Positions 23,143-47,815 are shown, counted from the stretch's first letter. The stretch: DNA of 64,000 bases from an uncultured Chloroflexia bacterium (GCA_963829295.1 CAWHHU010000003.1:360157-424156), one strand, 5' to 3'. The notes: generated by a model from the letters alone, not told the origin. Translations and numbers: made by a program.

Positions 23143-23219
23143 TGGTGGGCGATACTGGACTCGAACCAGTGACCTCATGCATGTCAAGCATGCGCTCTAA
23201 CCAGCTGAGCTAATCGCCC
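23143..23219 (-). tRNA. tRNA-Val (anticodon GAC), CCA encoded
   Basis: The minus strand reads GGGCGATTAGCTCAGCTGGTTAGAGCGCATGCTTGACATGCATGAGGTCACTGGTTCGAGTCCAGTATCGCCCACCA. This gives a cloverleaf with a 7-bp acceptor stem, anticodon stem CATGC/GCATG and loop TTGACAT. Confidence 0.9.
23179..23219. repeat. attL core: 41-nt direct repeat, equal to tRNA-Val nt 1-41
   Basis: Identical to 47769..47815 apart from a 6-nt CTCTAA duplication in the distal copy. Confidence 0.8.
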
Positions 23220-23350: not shown

Positions 23351-24337
23351 ATGACCGGTCAAGCGGCCAAGGCCGCGATTGTAGCAACCGAGGGCGACCT
23401 CGGCGCCAACCTCGCCCGCTTCCGGCGCAGCCTGCGCGCCGAGAACGTCAGCCCCAACACGCTCCTCGCCTACGGTGGCGCGGTCGAGCGGCTCGCCGGC
23501 TACCTGACGGCCGAGGCAATGCCGACCGATGTTGGCGCCATTCGCCGCGAGCACATCGAGGCGTTCATCGCGGACGCGCTCGAGCGCTTCAAGCCCGCGA
23601 CCGCCAACCACCGCTTCCGCGGCGTCCAGCGCTTCTTCAACTACCTCGTCGATGAGGGCGAGCTGGCGGCGTCGCCAATGGCCCGGATGCGGCCGCCGCG
23701 CATTCCCGACGACCCGCCCGCGGTCCTGTCCCGGGCCGACCAGGCGCGCCTGCTCACGGCCTGCGAGGGCGCCGACTTCGAGGCGCGGCGCGACCGGGCG
23801 ATCATCAGCGTGTTCCTTGATACCGGGGCCCGTCGGGCCGAGGTGGCCGGTCTGCGCTGGACGCCCGCGGATGACGCGACCAACGACGCCGACCTCGACG
23901 GTCGCGCGATCAGGGTCCTCGGCAAGGGCCGGCGCGAACGGCTGGTCAGGATCGGCCACAAGACCGTCAAGGACCTCGATCGCTACCTCGCCCTGCGGGC
24001 GCGCCACCCGCAGGCGCACCTGGCCGCCCTGTGGATTGGTCGCCGCGGCGCGCTGACCGACTCGGGCATCGGGCAGCTCGTCCAGGAGCGGGGCCGGGCG
24101 GCCGGGCTCGGCGACAACCTCCATCCGCATCAGCTGCGGCACACCTTCGCCCATGAATGGTTGGCGGCCGGCGGAAACGAGGGCGATCTCATGCGGCTCG
24201 CGGGCTGGCGCTCGCGAGCGATGCTCCAGCGCTACGCGGCGTCGACCGCCCAGGACCGCGCGCTCGCTGCCCACGATCGGATCTCAGCCCAAGGATCGCC
24301 TCTGAGGAGACTTGGTCGCTCCGGCCCCGGAACTTAA
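23351..24337 (+). CDS. int: Tyrosine recombinase / phage-type integrase (XerC/XerD-like)
   Basis: N-terminal SAM-like core-binding domain. Catalytic R...HxxR...Y ([28 protein letters not shown]). Confidence 0.9.
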
Positions 24338-25304: not shown

Positions 25305-26269
25305 CGGACAATGGTGGTACACCGAAGACAGCAACCTCGTCAACAACCCTTGGCACACCAGCCTGGGCAATCCCTGGTACTTCACCTACGCGCAATCCCA
25401 GGCCGGCACCGGTGAGTCAGTGACCTGCTTCACCTACTCGCACACCACCTGATAGCGGCTCACGCCACCGCAACAAGGGGCCCCGCGGCTTCCCGCGGGG
25501 CCTCCGCGGGCCAGGGCAACTGGCTCATGGCCCGCGCACCGTCGACCTCCTCTTGGGAACAGGGACGGTCGAAGCCCGGCCCCACCCGAGGCTTATGGGG
25601 TCCTGGGAGGGCGTTGGGGTAGTAGCACCAATACCCATCGGCGCCTGCGGTGGCATCGGGTCCGAACGTTTGATACGCGGGCAGGTAGACTGGCGCTGGG
25701 CGGTTCAGGTCCTGAACGAGAACAAGCCCGACTGCCGAGAGCACAACGAGCGCAACGGCCATAGACAGCCTACGCATCGGCGGGCCGCCTCCAGGGAGGA
25801 GCAGAGCCCACGCGAACAGCGCCGACGCGGCCAAGACTACGAGCGGCGCATGGCGAGTGACGGGGTGCGCGAGTCCACCGAGGGCACTTGGGCCCCGCAG
25901 TGCCTCGTGGACCGGGACCGCGACCACCATGGCCGCTGGGGATGGACGGCCGCGACACGATTCGGGGGCCGTGCCGGCCGGCTTGGCTGAAGATGGATTG
26001 CGATGCGATCACTGTTTGGCCGACGCCGGAAATGACGGTGCATAGCCGAAAGTCTTCATCCAAGAATGTTATGCCCTGACTCTCGCCTGCATCTACGGGA
26101 AACCCCGCAAGAAGGCCCTGAGCTGTGCTTGGTTCGACCGAGCCTGCGTCACATTGCAGGAAGATGACGGCCATCGACGCGCCGATCCGTTCCAATGAAC
26201 CGTCACTCCTTCGGTTCGCGCAGGAGCATGCGCAGGGTGGTGACGGTCGGGGTCGGTGTCGGCGGCTAA

Positions 26270-27291
26270 GGGCCTGTGGCCGAATTCTCCCGTTCGGATC
26301 GGCCTGTTGTGACGCCTGAGCTGTCACCGCGGCTCGGCAGACTGCGGGCATGGCGTTCGCGATCGCTCTCTCCGACGAGCAGTGGGAGCTGGTGGCGGAC
26401 CTGTTCGATCCGCCCCGCCGACGCGGTGCGCCGGCCGTGATCCCGCGGCGCCAGATGGTCGACGCGATGCTGTTCATCGGGCGGACCGGGATCCAGTGGC
26501 GCTACCTGCCCGAGCGCTACGGGTCCTGGACCGCCGTCTGGGCCCAGTGGCGCCGCTGGCGCGCCAACGGGGTGTGGGCGGCGGCGATGACGAGGCTCGT
26601 CGCGGTCGTGCGCCGGTTTCACGAGCGCGAGCCGATCCCGTCGATGGTGATGGTCGACGCCCAGACCGTGAAGGGCGCCCGCTACGGGCCGACGTTCCAT
26701 GCGGCCGGCGGCCGGGGTGGCCGGACGATCGCACCAAGCGCACGCTGCTCGTCGAGATCCTGGGCCTGCCTGTCGCCGCGGCGGCCTGCTCGGCCCGGCC
26801 GCATGACGTGGTCGCTGGCCGGGAGCTCCTGCGCGAGCGGATCGACACCCTGCCGCGCCTCCGGGCGATCGTCGGCGACCGTGCCTATCGCGGCCTGGCC
26901 AAGCTCGCTGCCCGCAAGCGGCTCGCGCTCGACATCAAGGCGCCGCCGCCGGGTGCCAGCGGCTTCACCCCGCTGTGGCCGCTGTACAAGGTCGAGCACG
27001 CGATCGCCCAGCCCGGTCGCTGGCGCCGGCTGTCGCGCTGCGACGAGGGCAGCGAGGCGTCCGCCCGGGCGTGGCTCGAGGTCGCCTCGGTCGGCTATCT
27101 CGCCTGGCGCGCCTCGATCTGACCGCACCATCCCATCAGCCCCGGTGCGCGGTCACCTCCACCTGCTCCCGGCCTTGGCACCGACGCCCCACGGCTCACG
27201 CACGCGCGGCTTCGGGGCTTGGTCTCCATGCGTCCAGGACCCAGCCGGTCGCGAGGCTGCCAGCTGGCGTTCCCGAATTCGGCCACAGGCC
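26270..27291. mobile_element. IS5-family (IS427-group-like) insertion sequence, 1022 bp, perfect 18-bp terminal IRs, 3-bp TAA target-site duplication
   Basis: IR-L GGGCCTGTGGCCGAATTC (26270-26287) and IR-R GAATTCGGCCACAGGCCC (27274-27291). Both ends are flanked by TAA (26267-26269 and 27292-27294). Confidence 0.85.
26350..27122 (+). CDS. IS5-family transposase (DDE) in two frames joined by a -1 frameshift (programmed or mutational)
   Basis: Frame A (26350-~26720) has LSDEQWELVADLFDPP....IPRRQMVDAMLFIGRTGIQWRYLPERYGSWTAVWAQWRRWRANGVW...VMVDAQTVKGARYGPTFHAAGG. Frame B (~26700-27122) has DDRTKRTLLVEILGLPVAAAACSARPHDVV...IVGDRAYRG, which is the DDE core. Confidence 0.75.
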
Positions 27292-27742
27292 CTAAGCAAT
27301 TCCGCCGCCCGCTGCCGTGGCGCTGGGCCCGGAGGCGAACGCACTCGACCTCGGCGAGGTCTCGGGACGCGGCGACGTGGACCCGTCGTCGCGCTCGGGC
27401 AAACCAGCCCGGCTCCGTGCGCCGGTCCCTCGAGCGTCCGGGCCAGCAAGTGATCTGCCTGGTTGACATGCGACGGCCGTCGTCGCTCGCAGCGTCAGGC
27501 GGCGCTCGACCGTCGCTTGGCTGGCGCCGCGCAGCGGTTCGGCATCAGGCGACTCGGCCCGGTCGCTCTGGTGTAGGCCCCTGGGCGGCATGGAATCGCA
27601 GAGCGAAGTCGCGTTTCGGGACAGGCCGCTGCCACGCACGTCGCCTGGTCGTGCCGATCGTCGCGAACGGGTCGTGACCAGGTCGCGGCTATCGGTCCTG
27701 GACGCGCCGGGGACGCGACCGTCCGCGCGACACGCGCCCGGC

Positions 27743-28684
27743 TCACTCGACGAACCGCGCCAGCGCCGGGATCGTCGCGAACACGCGCTCGTCGAGCCCG
27801 TCGAGCCCGTCGGGCTCAGCCAGGTGGCCCGGCGTGCGCAGGGGCCACGGATCGCCCGTCCAGTGCGGCGCAAGCTCCGAGGTCCGGGCTCGGTCGCCGA
27901 CGGGTGACGTCCAGATCGCGTGGAGCGGATCGACCGCCAGGGTCGGCTCAGCGATGAGCCAGACGTGAATGGGCTCGCTCGGGTGGTCGCCCCGGGCGAT
28001 CAGCCGCCCGAGCGATGAAGCCCGGCGCGGCGAGTCGACAACGATCCCGACATGGACCGGCAGCTCGTCGCGCTGGCGCGCCAGGGCCGAGCGGTAGCGG
28101 CGGACCTTCTCCGGCAGGACGGCGCCGCGCTCGGTGCCGAGGTCGCGCTCGACGAACAGGACGATCGAGCGCCCGCCAACGCGGATGACGGCGAATGCGT
28201 CCGGCCGGAGCCAGCCGCCGAACAGACGCAGACAGGCGCGCTCGGGCACCCAGGCCGCGATCCCGGTCTCTGACCCAAGATCGGCCGCTCGCAGGAACGC
28301 TGCCAGCAGGTCGTGCGTGGCCAGCCCGTGGATGACGGGCGAGGTGACCTCGACGCCTCCGTCGAGCCGCGGCCGGCCGGAGGGCCAGACCAGCCGCTCG
28401 AGCCCGACGCGGGCGGTCTTGGTCAGCGCGTACGCGTAGCGGCCGCGCGGGCGCTGGCGGTTGGCGGCCCAGCCGCCCGACACCAGGCTGTACTCGGCGA
28501 GCCGAGCGAGCCTGCGCTGGGCGATCCGCCGATGGCCGTAGGCGAGCAGCGCCGCGAGCTCGGCAGTGATCACGTCACCGCCTAGGAGCCACAGCAGGAC
28601 CGCCCGGTCGCGCTCGGGAAGCGCGCTCCAGCCGGCGAGCCCCGGGGCGCTCCGGAGCGGGACGACCCGTGCTGTCGTCCTCAC
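27743..28684 (-). CDS. Replication-relaxation family protein (Replic_Relax-like, HTH N-terminus)
   Basis: LPERDRAVLLWLLGGDVITAELAALLAYGHRRIAQRRLARLAEYSLV resembles the Replic_Relax N-terminal wHTH motif (...RHRLAVLHRLGLV..). 313 aa. Confidence 0.65.
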   Translation of the reverse strand: MRTTARVVPLRSAPGLAGWSALPERDRAVLLWLLGGDVITAELAALLAYGHRRIAQRRLARLAEYSLVSGGWAANRQRPRGRYAYALTKTARVGLERLVWPSGRPRLDGGVEVTSPVIHGLATHDLLAAFLRAADLGSETGIAAWVPERACLRLFGGWLRPDAFAVIRVGGRSIVLFVERDLGTERGAVLPEKVRRYRSALARQRDELPVHVGIVVDSPRRASSLGRLIARGDHPSEPIHVWLIAEPTLAVDPLHAIWTSPVGDRARTSELAPHWTGDPWPLRTPGHLAEPDGLDGLDERVFATIPALARFVE

Positions 28685-29166
28685 GTGCGGCCCTGGCGGC
28701 GTGCCGACCGCGTCCGGCGCGCACGCGCCGAGAGATAGGCGAGCCGCGCGAAATGGGCCGACCGGGCATGGGCAGCGCGGCGCGCCCGCTCCGCCGGCGG
28801 AAGGGCGCCGTCGGGGTCCACAAGTCGCTCAAAGCTGGCGAGGAACGCGGCTCGGCCTGCGGCCGAGGTCTCGCGCGGGTCGTGCGTCGCGTGGAGGCGG
28901 TAGGCGCCGATCCGGCCGCGCAGCGAGCGCTCCGCCCGGCTCGGGCCGTCGTGTGCACCGTCGCGCCGTGCCCGGGTCACGCCGGCGCCTCGTGGATCTC
29001 CTCGTCGCCCCCGTCGCCAAGAACGCCCAGCCAGGCGTCGGTTGCGACTGGCGTCGGGCAGGAGTACGGCGTCGGATCGGTGAGGAGGTCGCCGAGCGCC
29101 GTCCGGTGGCCGCCGGGGAACAAGCAGAGGATCCGCAGGCACGTTCGGTCGCGGGTGCGGAGGCAC
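28681..29166 (-). CDS. Hypothetical small protein, real start probably internal, overlapping a diverged repeat
   Basis: The ORF overlaps the upstream gene's start. The C-terminal ~80 aa look protein-like and the N-terminus is R/P-rich. Confidence 0.2.
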   Translation of the reverse strand: MPPHPRPNVPADPLLVPRRPPDGARRPPHRSDAVLLPDASRNRRLAGRSWRRGRRGDPRGAGVTRARRDGAHDGPSRAERSLRGRIGAYRLHATHDPRETSAAGRAAFLASFERLVDPDGALPPAERARRAAHARSAHFARLAYLSARARRTRSARRQGRT

Positions 29167-29408
29167 CCCGGATGAATGACCAGCAGGCGATCACATGCGG
29201 GAGCGGACACAAACGAACCGATCACCCGTATGGGGTCCCGCGTCGAAGGTGCGCCGAGCACACACGGACCGCGCGGCAGCAGTGGGGCACGCAAGACCCC
29301 ACGGCGCGACCGATCCATCGACCGACCAAACGCGTGTTTGGCGCCGTTCCGGACGATCGCGTTGTTCCGTTTGTGCAACGTCCCGCGTTTCCCAATTCAG
29401 GGCGACCT

Positions 29409-30496
29409 CAACCAGGGGCTTCATCGACCCTCGATTTCGAGGGCGGCCCAGTCCCATCTCCTCTCCGGCGGCACGGCCATGAACCCCGGAGCCACCGATC
29501 GATCCACGCCGCCGTCGCGAGGGGACGGAGCCTTCCGATCGACCGGCCGGCCGCCGGGCCGCACGGTCACGGCGCCGGCCTCGAGGGTGACGACCCGCCA
29601 CGGCGTCTGCGACCGGCAGGGCGACGGCCCCGACCCTGATTGACACGGCGGACGGCTTGCGCTGGCAGCCATGGTTCCGCCGAGACGTCGAGCGGGCGGT
29701 CGACCGCCGAGGTCAGCCGCCGGCTTCGACCCTAGCCACTTCGGCCGTCGCAGGGAACCCGGATTCCGTGCAAGATTCTGTGTATTGTCAGCTCCGCTAC
29801 GTCCCGATTGACACCCAGAATTACGTGTGCGACGCTCCCATCGTGCTCAAGACGAAGCGGACGTACAACCTCAGCCGGCGGACGATCGAGACGGTTCAGG
29901 CGCTCGCGGAGCGGAAGGTCGCGCCGACCCAGGACGCCCTCGTCGAGCTCGCCGTCGACGAGCTCGCCCGCCATGTCCGCGAGACCGACGAAGCGGCCGC
30001 CTGGGCGGGCGCGGCCACCGATCCGGACTTTGTCGCCGAGGCCGCCGAGCTCGAGGCGGCATATGGCGACGCCGACCCGGCCACGTGGCCGAGACCGTAG
30101 GGCTGCCAGCGCTCCGCTGGGCCGTCGTGATCGTCGGACTCGATCCGGTGGAGGGTCACGAGCAGGCCGGTGAGCGGCGGGCGCTGGTCGTGAGCTATGA
30201 GGCGTTCCACCGCTCGGGGCTGCTGACCGTGTGTCCGATCAGCGCCGCCCGCGAGAAGCCGCGCTATCCGGGCGAGGTCGCGATCCCGGCCGGCGAAGGT
30301 GGCCAGACGAAGTCCGGGCTCATCCTGTGCGCCCAGGTCCGGACGATCTCGGTCCGTCGGATCCGGGCGACCGGCATCCTGCCCGGTGGCGGCGTCGCCC
30401 ACCTCACCGACGCCCGGATCCGCTCGGCGGTGCGAGCGGCCCTTCGACACCACCTCGGGCTCGATATCCCAGCCCAGTCGGACGGGGCGGCGAGCG
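29409..30496. repeat. Copy A of a duplicated 1088-bp segment (operator region + RHH antitoxin + MazF toxin)
   Basis: Identical to 40277..41228 except for a 136-bp deletion in copy B. Diverged (~78%) homology extends left, with 28985-29140 matching 39360-39515. Confidence 0.85.
29843..30100 (+). CDS. Ribbon-helix-helix type antitoxin, cognate to the downstream MazF
   Basis: VLKTKRTYNLSRRTIETVQALAERKVAPTQDALVELAV... is an RHH DNA-binding N-terminus with an acidic C-terminal tail. It is located just upstream of the toxin and overlaps it by 16 nt. Confidence 0.5.
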   Translation: MLKTKRTYNLSRRTIETVQALAERKVAPTQDALVELAVDELARHVRETDEAAAWAGAATDPDFVAEAAELEAAYGDADPATWPRP

Positions 30497-30578: not shown

Positions 30579-33200
30579 CTACTCGCCGCGAAGCGAGGCG
30601 GCCGGAAGCTCCCGATAGACGTGGGCGAGGGGCACCAGCGCGGCCAGCGTGGTGGCAAGGACAGCGCTCAGGAGCGCGAGCCCGAGGCTCACCGCGAATG
30701 CTATGGGCATGACCCTGAGCACTAGCCCGATCGCCCCGACGATCAGCGTCGCTCCGGTGCCGCCTATGCATCCGATCACGATCGCTTGGATCGTGACAAC
30801 GGTCGCGACAGCCCGCCGTGGCCAGCCCAGGGCGCGAAGCGCCCCGAACTCCGCCTGCCGCTCGACATAGCCGAGGGTGACGATCTCTGCGACGGCCAGC
30901 GCTCCGATCACCAGTGTGACCAACGCAACCACGAAGTTGAACGTTCGTGCGCGGGCAGCGATGTGAACGCCGAGCAACGTGGTGTCCAGCTGCCCCGCGA
31001 ACCCGGCAGCCACGAGCGTGGAGCCGCCGACGAGCACCGCGCCGAGGCCAATGGTCACCGCGCCGAGCAGCGCCTCGGTGCGCCGGCTGCCAAGTACCTC
31101 CCTGAGCCCGAGCCCGGGAACAGACGTGACTCGTCGGACCCGTTCCGGGCCTGTACGCATGGCGCGACCGGCTGACGCCCGTGACGACGCGAGAGCCGGA
31201 ACCAACCCGGCCACCCCCGAGATCGCGAGTGCCAGGGGCACCACGGCTGCAAGCTGCCACGGCTCGATCCGGAGCGCAAGGGCGGCCTGCAACGCAGTGG
31301 CGGCCACCAACCCGATCACGGCGACCACCGCGCCCAGGAGCAGGACCTCGATCTCAACGAGGGCTCCGACACGCCATGCGGGCCAGCCCAGGGCGCGCAG
31401 GACGCCAAACTCGGCAACTCGACGCCGACTGGCCAGGTAGGCCGTCGCTGCCACCAGCACCGTGGCAGCGATCAGCACGACGATCAGGATTGCCAGATCC
31501 TGGGTCGCGAGTGCCTGCGCGAAGCGGATCGCCACCCCCTTGACGGACCATTGCTCGGAGACCGTCAGGGCGGGCCGGCCGAAGTCACCGGCTGGCAGGT
31601 CGACGACCACATGGCGGGGCGACGACCCGGCGACGATGTCGACATCGAGCCCGGTCGCGTCGTGGATGTCGGCGGCCACCTGAGCGAGCCGATCCTGGGC
31701 CTCTTGCCCCGGGTTTTCCGTTCCCGCCACGCGGACGCGGATGGCGCTGATGAATGCCGCACCGGCGGCGCCATCGTAGCGAGATGGATCGGCAAGCCAG
31801 GCTGCCGTCTGGAGCGAGACCAGGATGAGTGGCGGGCTGGTCACGTACGACGCCGGAGACCGGGTCGCGCCGAGCTGCCGGCCATCCGCCACCTGAACGG
31901 CCGGCAGTGAATAGGTCTCGAGTCGCCCGCCTGCCAGGATGTCGAAGCCTGGCACGCAGTCAGGGTTGAACTGACCGATAGGGTCCCAGCGGCTGAACAC
32001 TTCCGACCGGCGCTGCTGGTCATGGCGCACCACCGGCCGGAACCAGGTGTCAGTGGACTCGGGCGGGACGTGGGTCGCGCCGCCCGGGGTGATGGTCACG
32101 CTGGACTCATAGATCGAGGGATCGGTCGGTTGAGCATGGGCGGCGAGGTGATCGGGGCCGAGCAGGTCGTAGCTGACGTCGCCGATCGACCACAGCGGTG
32201 ACGTGTCGTAGAACGATCCGCTGTTGAGGGTCGGCAGGAACGCGCGATACGCGTCGTTTGCGCTCGCCGTGCGGCTGTCGACCGGTTGCCACCCCGAGAG
32301 GGTGTCGACACCGTCCTTGGCGAGCACCTCCGGATTCGCCGCGCGCTCGATCGTCATCGTGAGCGTCTCGTCGAGGAACGAGCGGTCGCTGACGAGGACC
32401 GGCAGGACAGGCTGTGGGCCGGCGGGCGAGCTGACCTCTGTCGGCACGTCGGACGCCTGGAGATAGCGACCCTGGGTCACGCACCGGTCGAGGTCGACGA
32501 GGCTGGCCTCCGCAACCGGATCGATGCCGGCGATGACGAACGGCTCCGGGAAGTTCACGAAGGCGCCCGCTGTCCCTGCCGGCAAGCCGCGGACCGGGAG
32601 TGCGTCGGGCGTCTGACCACCAAAGCAGGTGACCGTCGCGTCGCAGGCGATCTCCAGATCACCGACCTCGAGGTGGGCCGCCCCGACCGCGCTGCGCACG
32701 ACCCGGCCCTGGGGCGCGATCACCAGGTAGCCAGCAGGCTCCGGCGGATACCGACTCAGCCCGGCCTCCGCGGTGATGCTGGTCGTGATCCGAAGAACCG
32801 TGACTCCTGTGCCGTCGGCGAGCGACGAGAGATCCACCGGAATGCCGGCCGGCCATTGCACGAAGCCGGCGACCGCGATCGGCGCGGCGACCTCGACCTC
32901 GGGGACCGCGCGGATGCTCGCGAGCTGCGCCTCGGTGATCCCGCCGTACAGGCCGGAGATGGCATTGGGTCTGACCAGGCCCTGCGCCTGCTCGAGTGCG
33001 GTCGCCGACCCCACCGGGCGAACGAGCAGCTGATACGGTCCGCCCCATGCTCGGGTGATGTCGCCTGTCACGCTCGCCTGCGTCGTGCGGGTCGTCCCGG
33101 CCATCAACACGAACCCAATGACCGCGGTGGCCAGGCCAGCTGTTGCGAGGAGGGTGGCGAATCGCCGGGAAGTGATTTCCTGAACTGCGAGCCTGAGCAT
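30579..33200 (-). CDS. ABC transporter permease with two FtsX domains (MacB-like, 873 aa)
   Basis: N-terminal TM, large extracytoplasmic domain, FtsX TM bundle, second ECD, second FtsX bundle. Immediately downstream of the ABC ATPase. Confidence 0.85.
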   Translation of the reverse strand: MLRLAVQEITSRRFATLLATAGLATAVIGFVLMAGTTRTTQASVTGDITRAWGGPYQLLVRPVGSATALEQAQGLVRPNAISGLYGGITEAQLASIRAVPEVEVAAPIAVAGFVQWPAGIPVDLSSLADGTGVTVLRITTSITAEAGLSRYPPEPAGYLVIAPQGRVVRSAVGAAHLEVGDLEIACDATVTCFGGQTPDALPVRGLPAGTAGAFVNFPEPFVIAGIDPVAEASLVDLDRCVTQGRYLQASDVPTEVSSPAGPQPVLPVLVSDRSFLDETLTMTIERAANPEVLAKDGVDTLSGWQPVDSRTASANDAYRAFLPTLNSGSFYDTSPLWSIGDVSYDLLGPDHLAAHAQPTDPSIYESSVTITPGGATHVPPESTDTWFRPVVRHDQQRRSEVFSRWDPIGQFNPDCVPGFDILAGGRLETYSLPAVQVADGRQLGATRSPASYVTSPPLILVSLQTAAWLADPSRYDGAAGAAFISAIRVRVAGTENPGQEAQDRLAQVAADIHDATGLDVDIVAGSSPRHVVVDLPAGDFGRPALTVSEQWSVKGVAIRFAQALATQDLAILIVVLIAATVLVAATAYLASRRRVAEFGVLRALGWPAWRVGALVEIEVLLLGAVVAVIGLVAATALQAALALRIEPWQLAAVVPLALAISGVAGLVPALASSRASAGRAMRTGPERVRRVTSVPGLGLREVLGSRRTEALLGAVTIGLGAVLVGGSTLVAAGFAGQLDTTLLGVHIAARARTFNFVVALVTLVIGALAVAEIVTLGYVERQAEFGALRALGWPRRAVATVVTIQAIVIGCIGGTGATLIVGAIGLVLRVMPIAFAVSLGLALLSAVLATTLAALVPLAHVYRELPAASLRGE

Positions 33201-33208
33201 CGACGCGG

Positions 33209-33940
33209 CTACTCCGCGTCCAGAACATTGACCACGCCGGGCAGGCCTTCGTCCAGGCGCTCGTCGCTGGTCAGGCGTCCGCTCACCAGGTGCAGCACGC
33301 GATCCGCAGCCGCGGCGACCGCGGGATCGTGGGTGGCGACGACGACCGTCAGGTCACTCTCCTCTCGGAGTTGATCGAGATAGGCCATGAACTCGGTGGT
33401 TCGGTCTGCATCAAGGTTCCCGGTTGGCTCGTCAGCGAGCAGCAGCGCGGGCGCACCCACCATCGCGCGTGCCAGCGAGACCCGCTGGCGCTCGCCACCG
33501 GACAGTCGAGCCGGCGGGAAATCGGTCCGATCGGCCAACCCAAGGGAGGCGAGAAGCGTGCGAGCGCGCGGTTCAAGGCTGCGGCGAGACTCCCACGGCA
33601 AGCGTGCGGCGATGACGTTGTCAAGGGCGCTGAGCCCTGGGAGGAGAAACGGCTCCTGGAACACCAGGCCCATGAGCCTGGCACGGAGCGCCGTGCGTTC
33701 GCGGTCGCTGGCGGCGTCCATCGCTTCGCCCAGAACCTTGACGGTTCCGTGGGTCGGTAGATCGAGCCCAGCGATGAGGTTGAGGAGGGTGGTCTTGCCT
33801 GAGCCCGATGGGCCTGTGATGGCAACCGCCTGACCCTGTTGCACCTCAAGGGTGACGTCCAGCAGGGCGGCCACCTCGGTTGGCCCGACCTGATAGACCC
33901 GGGAGAGTGCCTGGAGCTCGATGGCCGGCAGCAGGCGCAT
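33209..33940 (-). CDS. ABC transporter ATP-binding protein (MacB/LolD-type)
   Basis: Walker A GPSGSGKTTLLN. Signature LSGGERQRVSLARA. Walker B LLLADEPTGNLD. H-loop. Start MRLLPAIELQ at 33940. Confidence 0.9.
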   Translation of the reverse strand: MRLLPAIELQALSRVYQVGPTEVAALLDVTLEVQQGQAVAITGPSGSGKTTLLNLIAGLDLPTHGTVKVLGEAMDAASDRERTALRARLMGLVFQEPFLLPGLSALDNVIAARLPWESRRSLEPRARTLLASLGLADRTDFPPARLSGGERQRVSLARAMVGAPALLLADEPTGNLDADRTTEFMAYLDQLREESDLTVVVATHDPAVAAAADRVLHLVSGRLTSDERLDEGLPGVVNVLDAE

Positions 33941-34497
33941 CAGGCGAGCTTGGCGGACCTCGTGCCCACTCGCCTGCGCGCCCGAGTGCGCGCCACGACC
34001 GCCGATGACGTGTCGTGGATATGGGTGGCCCACCGAAGGTCGGCTTCAGTACGCCGGATCTCGCGGTCGAGGGCGGATTGACCAAAGCCTTCGTCCCCGG
34101 GAATTCCACGTCGGGCGGCTCGAAGCCGATGCAGCTCAACCGTGCGCTCACGGACGACGGTCTCGGCGAGCGCGTCAAATCGATCGGGAATGGCGAGCCT
34201 CGCAACAGCCAGACGCACGACGATCTCGTCGGCCGTGCTCGGTTCCCAGAGCCAGGCCTCTGCAACACGACGACCAGCAGGTGTCAGCGTGAGGAGGTGG
34301 CGATCGGGCCGGCTCACCTGACGGACTCGGCGGGGATCGACCAGCCCATCGCGCTCCATGCGCCCGAGCGTGAGATAGACCTGACTGGTGCGGGTCGACC
34401 AGAGGGGGCCGAGCTCGGCCTCGAGCGTGATCACGAGCTCATAGCCATAGGAGGGTCCCACGAGGAGAAGTGCGGCGATTGCCCCATGCAGGTTCAT
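33940..34497 (-). CDS. PadR-family transcriptional regulator
   Basis: GYELVITLEAELGPLWSTRTSQVYLTLGRMERDGLV is a PadR winged-HTH. It is followed by a C-terminal helical domain. Confidence 0.8.
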   Translation of the reverse strand: MNLHGAIAALLLVGPSYGYELVITLEAELGPLWSTRTSQVYLTLGRMERDGLVDPRRVRQVSRPDRHLLTLTPAGRRVAEAWLWEPSTADEIVVRLAVARLAIPDRFDALAETVVRERTVELHRLRAARRGIPGDEGFGQSALDREIRRTEADLRWATHIHDTSSAVVARTRARRRVGTRSAKLA

Positions 34498-45317: not shown

Positions 45318-46104
45318 TCAGTCAGTCGGTGCCGCAGTCGATCCAGGGGCGGTCGCCGCCCTCTCGGACGACGACCTGCGCACCGAGCACGATCGCATGC
45401 GGGACGCGCTCGGTTTCCCTCGCGGTCGGACCACGACGGTAAGCCGCTTGGTCGGCCGCGGCCACCTGAATGACCAGGTCGAGGAGACCGACCAGCGAGG
45501 CCATCCGGTCGTACTCTCCGAGTTCGCCCCGGGCCAGTCTCTCGTCGCCTCGATGCGGCTCGACCAGGGTCCGTCCGAAGCCCGCTTGGTAACCGCGTCC
45601 ACGGCGGCTGCAAACGCACGGAGTGCTCGCGCTGCGCTCGGGTTCGGCGACTCGGCGCCGGACCAAATCTGGGATGACGACTCTACGGGCGGCTGGGGCG
45701 TCGCCTGGGGTCGCACCGAGGCCGGTTACGCGGTCCGCGGTGACGGAACCATCGTCTACGTCTGGCCGGACGGCCGGATCCAGAGCTTCGCCAACCAGGC
45801 TCGCACACTCGCGGCGGCCCCCGGTGCGCGGATCAGCTCCGGAGAAGCGATCATGCTGTCGCAGGCGTTCATCACCTCGCCGGGCCGACAGGGACCGACG
45901 TTCGTCATAGCCAAACCGAGACTCGAATGGGTCAGCCCCAACGGCGCCTTCGATTCCGCACTGCCTGCGGACGGCCTGCCTGTCTTGCGGCTCGCCTGGG
46001 TCGTCGATGCGCAATCGGAGGACGAGAACGCAGTGCCGTGGCTGGTCACCGTGTTCCTTGACGCCGGCAGCAGCCAGACCCTCGGCGGCGAGGTAGTCGA
46101 GTAG
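45223..46104 (+). CDS. Secreted hypothetical protein
   Basis: Signal peptide MNAIAKSIASVALVVLLTSSITGDIGAVSAV. GGGGGG-AAGCTGG-ATG (SD-like). Overlaps the previous ORF by 95 nt in another frame. Confidence 0.45.
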   Translation: MNAIAKSIASVALVVLLTSSITGDIGAVSAVDQSVGAAVDPGAVAALSDDDLRTEHDRMRDALGFPRGRTTTVSRLVGRGHLNDQVEETDQRGHPVVLSEFAPGQSLVASMRLDQGPSEARLVTASTAAANARSARAALGFGDSAPDQIWDDDSTGGWGVAWGRTEAGYAVRGDGTIVYVWPDGRIQSFANQARTLAAAPGARISSGEAIMLSQAFITSPGRQGPTFVIAKPRLEWVSPNGAFDSALPADGLPVLRLAWVVDAQSEDENAVPWLVTVFLDAGSSQTLGGEVVE

Positions 46105-46222
46105 CCAGCGAAGTCTGCGGGCCGGCCACCACATCGAGTGGAGCCGGCCCGCCATCGAGACTGCTGGCGGCATCACGATCATTACCCGAGAAGTCACGCC
46201 TCGTGGAAAGGGAAATGCGCAG

Positions 46223-47398
46223 ATGAGCGGACGATGGCGCTGGAGCGTGTTGGCGGCGCTCATCGTGCTCGGTGCGACCGGCTGCTCGGATAATCAGCCG
46301 GGCGCTGTCCGGCCTTCCGTGGCGTCGGCATCGAGGCCTTCGTCGGATGTCCCGACCACGGCCCAGATCTCCAGCCCAGTCTCAACGTCGACCGTGAACG
46401 AAGCGTCGCGCGGCCGGTTCCGTCCGACCGGGGCGCCCATGATCGCGCGGGCCGAGGCGCTCGCAGCGCCGCTGCCCGATGGTCGCGTCCTTGTCGTCGG
46501 CGGCTGCGCCTGTGCGGACGCCGAGGTCTACGATCCGGCTATTGGGACATTCTCCGCGACGGGCCCCGTCTCGCACGTTCGCGCTCAGGGCGAGACCTTG
46601 ACACCACTTCCAGATGGGCGCGTCCTGCTCGCGGGCGGCTGGTCACCCTCTGGCCTTGGGGTTCCCGAGGCCGAGGTCTACCATCCCGCGTCGGGCTCCT
46701 TCGCCGACGTCGGCGACCTCATTGTCCCGGTCGCGTTCCATGCCGCGATCACCCTCGCGAACGGGCGCGTGCTCCTCGCGGGCGGCGCTGACGACGAAGG
46801 CGACCGGCTTGTTGTCACCCAGGTCTTCGACCCTGCGACGAACACGTTCTTCCGCGGCCAGGACCTGCCCGGCGCGCGTGCCGGGGCAGCCACCGCGACA
46901 CTGGAGGATGGTGCCCTGATCGTCGGCGGTGCCGGGTCCTGCACTCGCGACGACCCGCTCCCTGATGCGCTCCGCGTGAACGACACCGGCTTGGTCACCT
47001 CGGTCGCCACGCTGATCACGCCCCGCACGGGTGCCACCGCGGTCGGGCTCGTCGGCGACAGCGTGGTCGTGGTCGCCGGCAGCACGAGCTGTCGCACCGA
47101 AGAGCCGATCGGCAAGGCGGAGATCCTCGCTTCGGGCGCGGCGGCGTTCGCGTCCGCGGGCGAAACGGCCCCCATGCTGGCCGCGGCGGCGGTCCTGCTC
47201 GACAACGGATCCGTCCTCGTGCTAGGTGATGGCACTCCCGCCTCGGTCCTATACGAGATGCCGGCGGGCGTCCTCGTTCCGGGCCCCGATTTGACGCATG
47301 CCCGGTTCCGGCCGGCGATGGTCGGGCTCGACGACGGGAGCATTCTCGTGGTTGGCGGGAGTGACGAGCGGATCGCAGCCGAGATATACGAGCCCTGA
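46223..47398 (+). CDS. Kelch-repeat beta-propeller lipoprotein
   Basis: Lipobox LGATGC. A disordered S/P/T linker. Seven repeats of the L(P)DGRVL(V/L)(A/V)GG...(E)VYDP type. Confidence 0.65.
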   Translation: MSGRWRWSVLAALIVLGATGCSDNQPGAVRPSVASASRPSSDVPTTAQISSPVSTSTVNEASRGRFRPTGAPMIARAEALAAPLPDGRVLVVGGCACADAEVYDPAIGTFSATGPVSHVRAQGETLTPLPDGRVLLAGGWSPSGLGVPEAEVYHPASGSFADVGDLIVPVAFHAAITLANGRVLLAGGADDEGDRLVVTQVFDPATNTFFRGQDLPGARAGAATATLEDGALIVGGAGSCTRDDPLPDALRVNDTGLVTSVATLITPRTGATAVGLVGDSVVVVAGSTSCRTEEPIGKAEILASGAAAFASAGETAPMLAAAAVLLDNGSVLVLGDGTPASVLYEMPAGVLVPGPDLTHARFRPAMVGLDDGSILVVGGSDERIAAEIYEP

Positions 47399-47768: not shown

Positions 47769-47815
47769 GCATGTCAAGCATGCGCTCTAACTCTAACCAG
47801 CTGAGCTAATCGCCC
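47769..47815. repeat. attR core: 5' 41 nt of tRNA-Val with a 6-nt CTCTAA internal duplication (tRNA fragment, non-functional)
   Basis: GCATGTCAAGCATGCGCTCTAAC[TCTAAC]CAGCTGAGCTAATCGCCC matches 23179..23219. There is no D/T-arm completion and no 3' half. Confidence 0.8.

Follow-up and report, generated by a model that had tools for sequence, protein, structure and literature searches.

A complete IS5-family insertion sequence in an uncultured Chloroflexia bacterium, with a transposase very probably disabled by a one-base deletion rather than split by programmed frameshifting

We analyzed a 64,000-nucleotide stretch of DNA from an uncultured Chloroflexia bacterium (hereafter, the window) and conclude that it very probably carries a complete copy of an IS5-family insertion sequence (IS) whose transposase has been disabled by the deletion of one base, rather than being produced through a programmed frameshift. 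The family normally encodes one uninterrupted 257-aa DDE transposase comprising DUF4096 and DDE_Tnp_1 domains. In the course of events that we propose, this copy inserted at an intergenic spot of an approximately 24.6-kb element integrated at a tRNA-Val gene, and a single G of its Gly128 codon, which belongs to the catalytic domain, was subsequently deleted. Initiated at the ATG, translation would then run through 127 native residues into approximately 240 out-of-frame residues, and active transposase would probably no longer be made from this copy.

Anatomy of the element and its genomic setting

An inverted repeat search located the left terminus (IR-L, GGGCCTGTGGCCGAATTC) at 26270-26287 on the forward strand and the right terminus (IR-R) at 27275-27292 on the reverse strand. 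The two are exact reverse complements over 18/18 bp, in agreement with the initial annotation, and the same terminus is found in relatives of the element. Even with three mismatches permitted, the 18-mer matched only these two sites in the 64-kb window, whereas shuffled sequences gave a mean of 0.10 matches and two or more matches in 0/100 shuffles. By direct reading, a TAA lies outside each IR on the forward strand, at 26267-26269 (within the target C-TAA-G, corresponding to the TNA of CTNAG across the family) and at 27293-27295, as had also been described. The element proper thus extends from 26270 to 27292 and measures 1,023 bp, not 1022 bp; the previously given extent of 26267-27294 stops one base short of 27295 on the right. 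A second copy or fragment of the element was not found within the 64-kb window.

A terminus of the form GGGCCTGT(A/G)GCCGAATTC is common to the relatives L001, L005-L009, L013, L023, L029 and L031, whose IRs as a rule show 0-2 mismatches and whose elements measure 1,022-1,077 bp. The target across relatives is C-TNA-G, with 3-bp duplications of TTA/TTA, TAA/TAA and TGA/TGA. Because the family inserts at CTNAG, and the T-N-A flanks of several relatives differ at the middle base, only the middle A of the TAA...TAA duplication is informative. The empty site, as reconstructed, reads ggcggcTAAgcaattcc.

Between the termini, all features lie on the forward strand. A 5' leader (26288..26349) separates IR-L from the transposase ATG at 26350 and can be aligned with its counterpart in the intact relative L001. 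Codons 1-127 follow in frame A (26350..26730), encoding the DUF4096 'IS4/5 transposase' DNA-binding domain (PF13340, E 1e-24) and the first part of the DDE domain, where catalytic D103 lies; their assignment is based on this profile match, on an alignment to 23 homologues and on tblastn (q1-127, 92%). DNA alignments place the lesion at 26731..26732, where the Gly128 codon lacks one G. Codons 129-257 and the stop codon (26733..27122, stop at 27120-27122; tblastn q129-256, 93%) are read in the -1 (+2) frame and encode the remainder of the DDE domain, which contains D177 and E216. The remaining 3' non-coding part (27123..27274) is conserved in the intact relative, as judged from the alignment with L001.

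The catalytic residues D103, D177 and E216 are invariant in a 24-sequence alignment and all present in the window copy, split over its two frames. The initial annotation was therefore right to describe a transposase in two frames, whose C-terminal part is read in the -1 frame, and imprecise in assigning a helix-turn-helix to frame A and the DDE core to the -1 frame, since D103 is encoded in frame A and the break cuts the DDE domain, leaving D103 upstream and D177/E216 downstream. The change of frame, for which 26690-26720 had been suggested, is actually at 26731/26732. Beyond it, frame A meets no stop until 27451-27453 and runs out through IR-R, so that its product of 127 native and approximately 240 out-of-frame residues ends outside the element, at 27453.

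We next considered the repaired protein, obtained by joining both frames with one residue inserted (257 aa). It scored 143.8 bits against the NCBIfam model NF033580 (transpos_IS5_3, IS5 family transposase; curated cut-off 110), with a match covering profile positions 4-254 of 258. The Pfam domain DDE_Tnp_1 (PF01609) spans residues 98-186 of this protein; it scored 17 bits, below the cut-off, with the C-terminal frame alone, and 26.8 against a cut-off of 23 after the one-base repair. Together, the DUF4096 and DDE_Tnp_1 domains, the NCBIfam model, the DDE triad, the IRs and the short duplication make membership in the IS5 family secure and bear out the original family assignment: this is a complete IS with intact termini and a matching 3-bp flank.

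With regard to the genomic setting, a housekeeping block (mutS2, cvpA, pheS, rplT, infC, thrS) lies to the left and is followed, in order, by a tRNA-Val gene (23143-23219), a tyrosine recombinase gene (23351-24337), a lower-GC stretch, the IS and a Replic_Relax gene (27743-28684). The 5' 41 nt of the tRNA-Val gene recur at 47769-47815 with a 6-nt internal duplication, and this repeat brackets an integrated element of approximately 24.6 kb that coincides with a dip in GC content. The IS lies inside it, consistent with its earlier placement within an island. The reconstructed empty site is not spanned by any ORF whose codon bias resembles that of coding sequence, which indicates that the insertion is intergenic and disrupted no gene. 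The transposase relatives come almost all from Chloroflexota/Limnocylindria-type soil metagenome-assembled genomes (MAGs), which probably points to the lineage of the host.

Intact relatives and the missing base in the Gly128 codon

A protein database search with the repaired protein returned 680 homologues, of which the best 120 are 73-93% identical to it. Of these 120, 92 match the repaired window protein in length at exactly 257 aa, and more than 100 of the close homologues are uninterrupted ORFs. The residue at the junction, position 128, is Gly in 118 of the best 120 (...GGRGGRTI-G-TKRTLLVEILG...), and a Gly occupies the aligned position even in IS1032, which is 34% identical. Among 36 related genome loci, 20 encode an uninterrupted full-length transposase in a single frame. 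Uninterrupted single-ORF homologues, which the initial annotation had itself named as counting against its reading, are thus the overwhelming norm.

The closest intact relative, L001/L002 (encoding P0001), shares 93% amino acid identity with the repaired protein and 89% nucleotide identity over the whole element. Where it reads ACGATCGGTACC, the window has ACGATC-GCACC, and this 1-nt gap at codon 128 is the sole gap in the ORF in the DNA alignment. At codon level, the window reads ATC-GC-ACC, compared with ATC-GGT-ACC in L001 and ATC-GGC-ACC in most other intact relatives. Given a one-base gap relative to intact L001/L002 in the codon of a near-invariant Gly, the split is a 1-nt deletion, private to this copy among the relatives compared.

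Other broken members of the family carry lesions of their own, at codons 7, 24, 29, 53, 108, 115, 117, 118, 127/132, 157, 186/189 and 207; each has a different one, and none shares the codon-128 lesion of the window. These comprise 1-nt deletions at codon 115 (L070) and codon 118 (L072), a 2-nt insertion at codon 117 (L071), single-base insertions at codons 29, 127 and 132 (L069), and further lesions at codon 108 (L032), 186/189 (L021), 157 (L023), 207 (L022) and 7/53 (L038), with several in L033. L070 and L071 bear MEGAHIT-style contig names (k141_...). Judging from these names, the two are probably short-read assemblies and their lesions real mutations.

We also looked for other copies of the same broken allele. 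A degenerate DNA pattern for the 1-nt loss in the Gly128 codon gave 23 matches in JGI metagenome contigs, none of them in the family, and an exact-product look-up of the 367-, 246-, 208- and 182-aa ORFs returned no record. A lineage sharing the frameshift, considered on the basis of eight proteins that matched the frame-B product, was discarded when DNA alignment revealed individual lesions in its members. The first ~115 residues of the frame-B query are out of frame, a part that all eight matches covered, and the contigs of four of the eight were aligned with intact references. Such a query favors -1-type lesions just upstream of codon 128, and the local cluster of lesions at codons 115-118 reflects ascertainment at least in part; across the genome set, which is free of this bias, lesions are scattered from codon 7 to codon 207.

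Reality, recency and consequences of the lesion

The repaired ORF compared with its closest intact relative yielded dN/dS = 0.117 (dS 0.33), and comparisons of intact relatives with one another yielded 0.13-0.18. Across the 111 columns conserved at ≥97% in 120 homologues, the window copy departs at one (L222P), while 36% of intact members show at least one departure at such columns. The low dN/dS and the single violated column among 111 suggest that the lesion is recent; the gene probably evolved under purifying selection through nearly all of its history, with the frameshift arising late. A 'heavily decayed' copy, which G23R, L222P and Y232D had suggested in a 24-sequence alignment, was dropped, as only L222P stands with 120 homologues.

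The main caveat is that the deletion might reflect an error of assembly or of basecalling, perhaps a systematic one, at this site. On this reading, the Gly128 codon would really be intact, the deletion a consensus error and the element autonomous and active, which we regard as unlikely. An otherwise pristine ORF, under strong purifying selection and with one conserved-residue departure, is what an error in an intact gene would look like. However, the identical deletion is present in L039, a k-mer assembly of run ERR11718636 that is 100% identical to window positions 26493-29436, a segment including both the deletion and the right junction. The local context, CGATCG|G, contains a GATC motif and would favor an error, yet the window holds 33 CGATCGG sites and no other recognizable gene in it is frameshifted. 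Among its identifiable genes, as assessed with Pfam profiles, no other split gene was found, and MutS2, CvpA, PheS, L20, IF3, ThrRS, HisG, an amidohydrolase, an MFS transporter and an ABC ATPase/permease pair all gave end-to-end matches. Likewise, the related records look like long-read assemblies, and one long-read relative (L069) has its three separate 1-nt insertions, whereas four contigs, drawn from three runs and overlapping the window by approximately 10.3 kb in all, show seven substitutions and 0 gaps. The gap-free overlap and the lack of split genes together argue for a low indel error rate in the window.

The left junction is covered by L063 (run ERR11718636, 99.9%) and by L067 (run SRR27973946, another project, 99.8%). 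L039 is the only contig that independently covers the deletion, and it may come from the same sample as the window. The impression of long-read assembly in the related records derives from their contig names (contig_N, MFD bins).

Taking the deletion as real, we also considered whether the region is an indel hotspot that acts as a switch, with GC-rich codons ~108-132 being hypermutable, copies flipping OFF and ON by single-base indels, and the window copy representing a reversible OFF state of a still-competent element instead of a dead gene. We find this very improbable. Independent lesions at codons 108, 115, 117, 118, 127/132 and 128 in six copies would fit such a switch, but the search that yielded most of them preferentially recovers -1-type lesions a short way 5' of codon 128, and the unbiased genome set shows the wider spread described above. 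Similarly, P0105 leaves the frame at approximately codon 117 and regains it at approximately codon 150, as a switch might do; the window site, however, involves neither a long homopolymer nor a repeat tract (GG to G), and the lesion types differ (del1, ins1, ins2).

Finally, we examined the sequence for signals of recoding, having noted that programmed ribosomal frameshifting had been proposed for this transposase. Of the slippery heptamer and downstream structure to be expected from that proposal, neither was found. Frame A was scanned from 26350 to 27120 and contains no X XXY YYZ heptamer. The break sequence is ACGATCGCACC; the longest homopolymer near it is GGGG, and no A or T run suited to transcriptional slippage lies near it. 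Three windows around and 3' of the break gave folding z-scores of +0.21 to +0.84 relative to shuffled sequence, showing no stimulatory RNA structure, and the equivalent L001 region gave z +1.35. A search for Rfam recoding elements returned no match at E up to 1. A programmed -1 frameshift that joins OrfA (frame A) and OrfB (-1 frame) into an active OrfAB, as in frameshifted IS427-group elements, would account for the -1 frame of the C-terminal part and has precedent in the two-ORF members of some IS5-family groups (PMC3196728), but it is very improbable and can hardly be upheld against a family norm of one uninterrupted 257-aa ORF, a split arising from a 1-nt deletion unique to this copy, the lack of heptamer, downstream structure, Rfam element and further copies with this lesion or relatives broken at the same site, a break that parts D103 from D177/E216, and a frame A that has no stop after the break and leaves the element. 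The comparison with intact relatives is what settles the question of lesion versus programmed frameshift.

The element had been called apparently young, likely functional and mobile. The description as young stands insofar as the gene appears to have decayed only recently; a very recent transposition is not demonstrable, because perfect IRs are a trait of the family, only the middle base of the target-site duplication is informative, and a contig of a separate sequencing project (L067, SRR27973946) carries this insertion as well. The description as functional is not supported: the transposase is broken by a deletion in a near-invariant Gly codon, from which a loss of activity would be predicted, and the copy is not demonstrably active. 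No near-identical intact master copy was present in the protein clusters examined, in which the best identity was 93.5%. Since the k-mer contigs continue without a break across each end of the IS, another identical copy is unlikely to have been appreciably abundant in those samples. As both ends are intact, an intact relative sharing the cell might at most mobilize this copy in trans.

The biological weight of these observations is small, as they concern a routine IS5-family copy that would only just have lost its transposase. They do carry a caution for annotation. DNA of 70% GC keeps alternative frames open for hundreds of codons, so that the loss or gain of one base can look like overlapping OrfA and OrfB genes and be wrongly labeled a 'programmed frameshift'. 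In addition, soil Chloroflexota-type MAGs can be searched for members of this abundant and apparently unnamed IS lineage with a signature made up of the element, the termini GGGCCTGT(A/G)GCCGAATTC and the target CTNAG, and the insertion itself can serve as a strain marker for the approximately 24.6-kb element at tRNA-Val.

Relation to known IS5-family groups

Elements of the IS427 group measure approximately 800-1000 bp, duplicate 2-4 bp of target and have termini beginning with G (ISfinder). The window element resembles them in its DUF4096 and DDE_Tnp_1 transposase and its G-starting termini, and may do so in its small size and short duplication; its duplication is 3 bp, and its length is 1,023 bp, with 1,022-1,077 bp in relatives. 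In contrast, the two-ORF programmed-frameshift layout is not a property of the window family, and it was mainly on this layout that the earlier IS427 assignment rested. The termini of the window element start with GGG, which may set them apart from those of the IS1031 group, given as GAG in the ISfinder table. Single ORFs and 3-nt targets are common features of the IS1031 group (PMC2516522; PMC3196728), and the window family has both, with a single ORF and a 3-nt TNA duplication.

A comparable ambiguity of grouping has been described for ISLxx6 and IS1237 of the actinobacterium Leifsonia xyli, to which we liken the window element by description. These were classed in the IS427 group (PMC2516522), and yet ISLxx6 shares with the IS1031 group a 3-nt target and a single ORF that is read through, whereas the ORF of its close relative IS1237 is interrupted, and a possible further group within the IS5 family was suggested for the two (PMC2516522).

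The nearest elements with PGAP names in the plasmid collection were IS1032 (35%) and ISRtr3 (34.6%), which do not discriminate between groups. IS1032 of Komagataeibacter (WP_035366909.1, 'IS5-like element IS1032 family transposase') has a single uninterrupted ORF like the window family, and a full-length alignment (hhalign probability 99.7%, 34% identity) includes a G-x-K-R motif containing the junction Gly; it differs in being only ~35% identical and in coming from a different host phylum. ISRtr3 of Rhizobium tropici CIAT 899 (pRtrCIAT899b, WP_004126090.1) also has a single ORF, with 34.6% identity over 99% of the protein, and similar termini (GAGCCTGACCGAA... compared with GGGCCTGTGGCCGAA...), but is distant in sequence and has the terminal triplet GAG rather than GGG. 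Among plasmid records, the closest copy in a cultured organism is an unnamed 'IS5 family transposase' of a Miltoncostaea oceani plasmid (WP_217924893.1), a single 258-aa ORF with 55.8% identity over 100% of the protein, which is still below 60%.

Taken together, the organization of the family fits the features of the IS1031 group better than a frameshifted design of the IS427 type. We therefore treat the element as an unnamed member of the IS5 family whose organization is IS1031-like, a subgroup placement made by features rather than by ISfinder clustering. With at most 35% identity to the PGAP-named IS retrieved from the plasmid collection and a CTNAG target, the family may represent an undescribed IS5 subgroup, possibly one specific to soil Chloroflexota/Limnocylindria-type lineages.

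Integrated element surrounding the IS copy

The IS5-family copy in the window is surrounded by an integrated element of ~24.6 kb (23143-47815), in which a tRNA-Val gene (23143-23219, minus strand) adjoins a tyrosine recombinase (23351-24337). A direct repeat of the first 41 nt of the tRNA-Val gene (its 5′ end, 23179-23219) is found at 47769-47815, where it includes a 6-nt CTCTAA duplication. It is unusual both that this repeat corresponds to the 5′ half of the tRNA-Val and that the island is situated 5′ of the gene. Among the genes carried by the island are those for Replic_Relax (27743-28684), a pair consisting of an ABC ATPase and an FtsX permease (30579-34045), and a protein with Kelch repeats (46097-47395). 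The GC content of the island drops to 0.59-0.66 in parts.

When we compared the window with the strain of run SRR27973946 (contig L067), we found five substitutions inside 30 nt of the integrase gene (24024-24053); the other ~2.7 kb of the overlap were identical. Either hypervariability of this patch or a short tract of recombination may explain the cluster. L067 and a contig from a different sequencing project, L063, both end exactly at window position 26511, and a third overlapping contig, L039, starts at 26493. Position 26511 falls within the conserved ...TGIQWRYLP... coding stretch, away from the IS ends. These stops presumably reflect branching of the assembly graph, presumably because k-mers at this position are common to other family members in the sample.

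Target-site flanks and terminus spacing in related copies

In six relatives, both 3-bp flanks conform to T-N-A with an unequal middle base (left/right): L009 (TTA/TGA), L013 (TCA/TGA), L029 (TAA/TGA), L031 (TGA/TAA), L021 (TCA/TTA), and L025 (TAA/TGA). Four of these copies have TGA as their right flank, and the ORFs of L009 and L013 are intact. Such flanks could result from inter-copy recombination, from mutation, or from some feature of the insertion chemistry.

We also observed correctly oriented family termini spaced ~1.6-2.6 kb apart, compared to the usual ~1.03 kb, in L011 (2419-4507), L003 (2421-4014), and L025 (2420-4991), a spacing that suggests additional internal sequence or nested insertions in these elements. 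The flanks of L011 form a palindrome, tcgacTTA...TTAgtcga.

Chimeric gene calls and the closest homologue from a cultured organism

Two called genes, P0176 (L069 1501-2667) and P0105, are chimeric, running into the transposase from outside or from the inverted repeat. In P0176, a triply frameshifted IS copy is fused to the 3′-terminal part of a gene for an AI-2E transporter. The start of P0105 (MAEF...) looks as though it could be situated in the inverted repeat (GTGGCCGAATTC), and its reading frame is lost from approximately codon 117 and regained at approximately codon 150. Both are misleading ORFs arising from open alternative frames in high-GC DNA.

On the Miltoncostaea oceani plasmid NZ_CP064357.1 (L066 1136-1374), the transposase homologue that is the closest from a cultured organism among the plasmid records is positioned directly upstream of a gene for a TnpB-family RNA-guided endonuclease.
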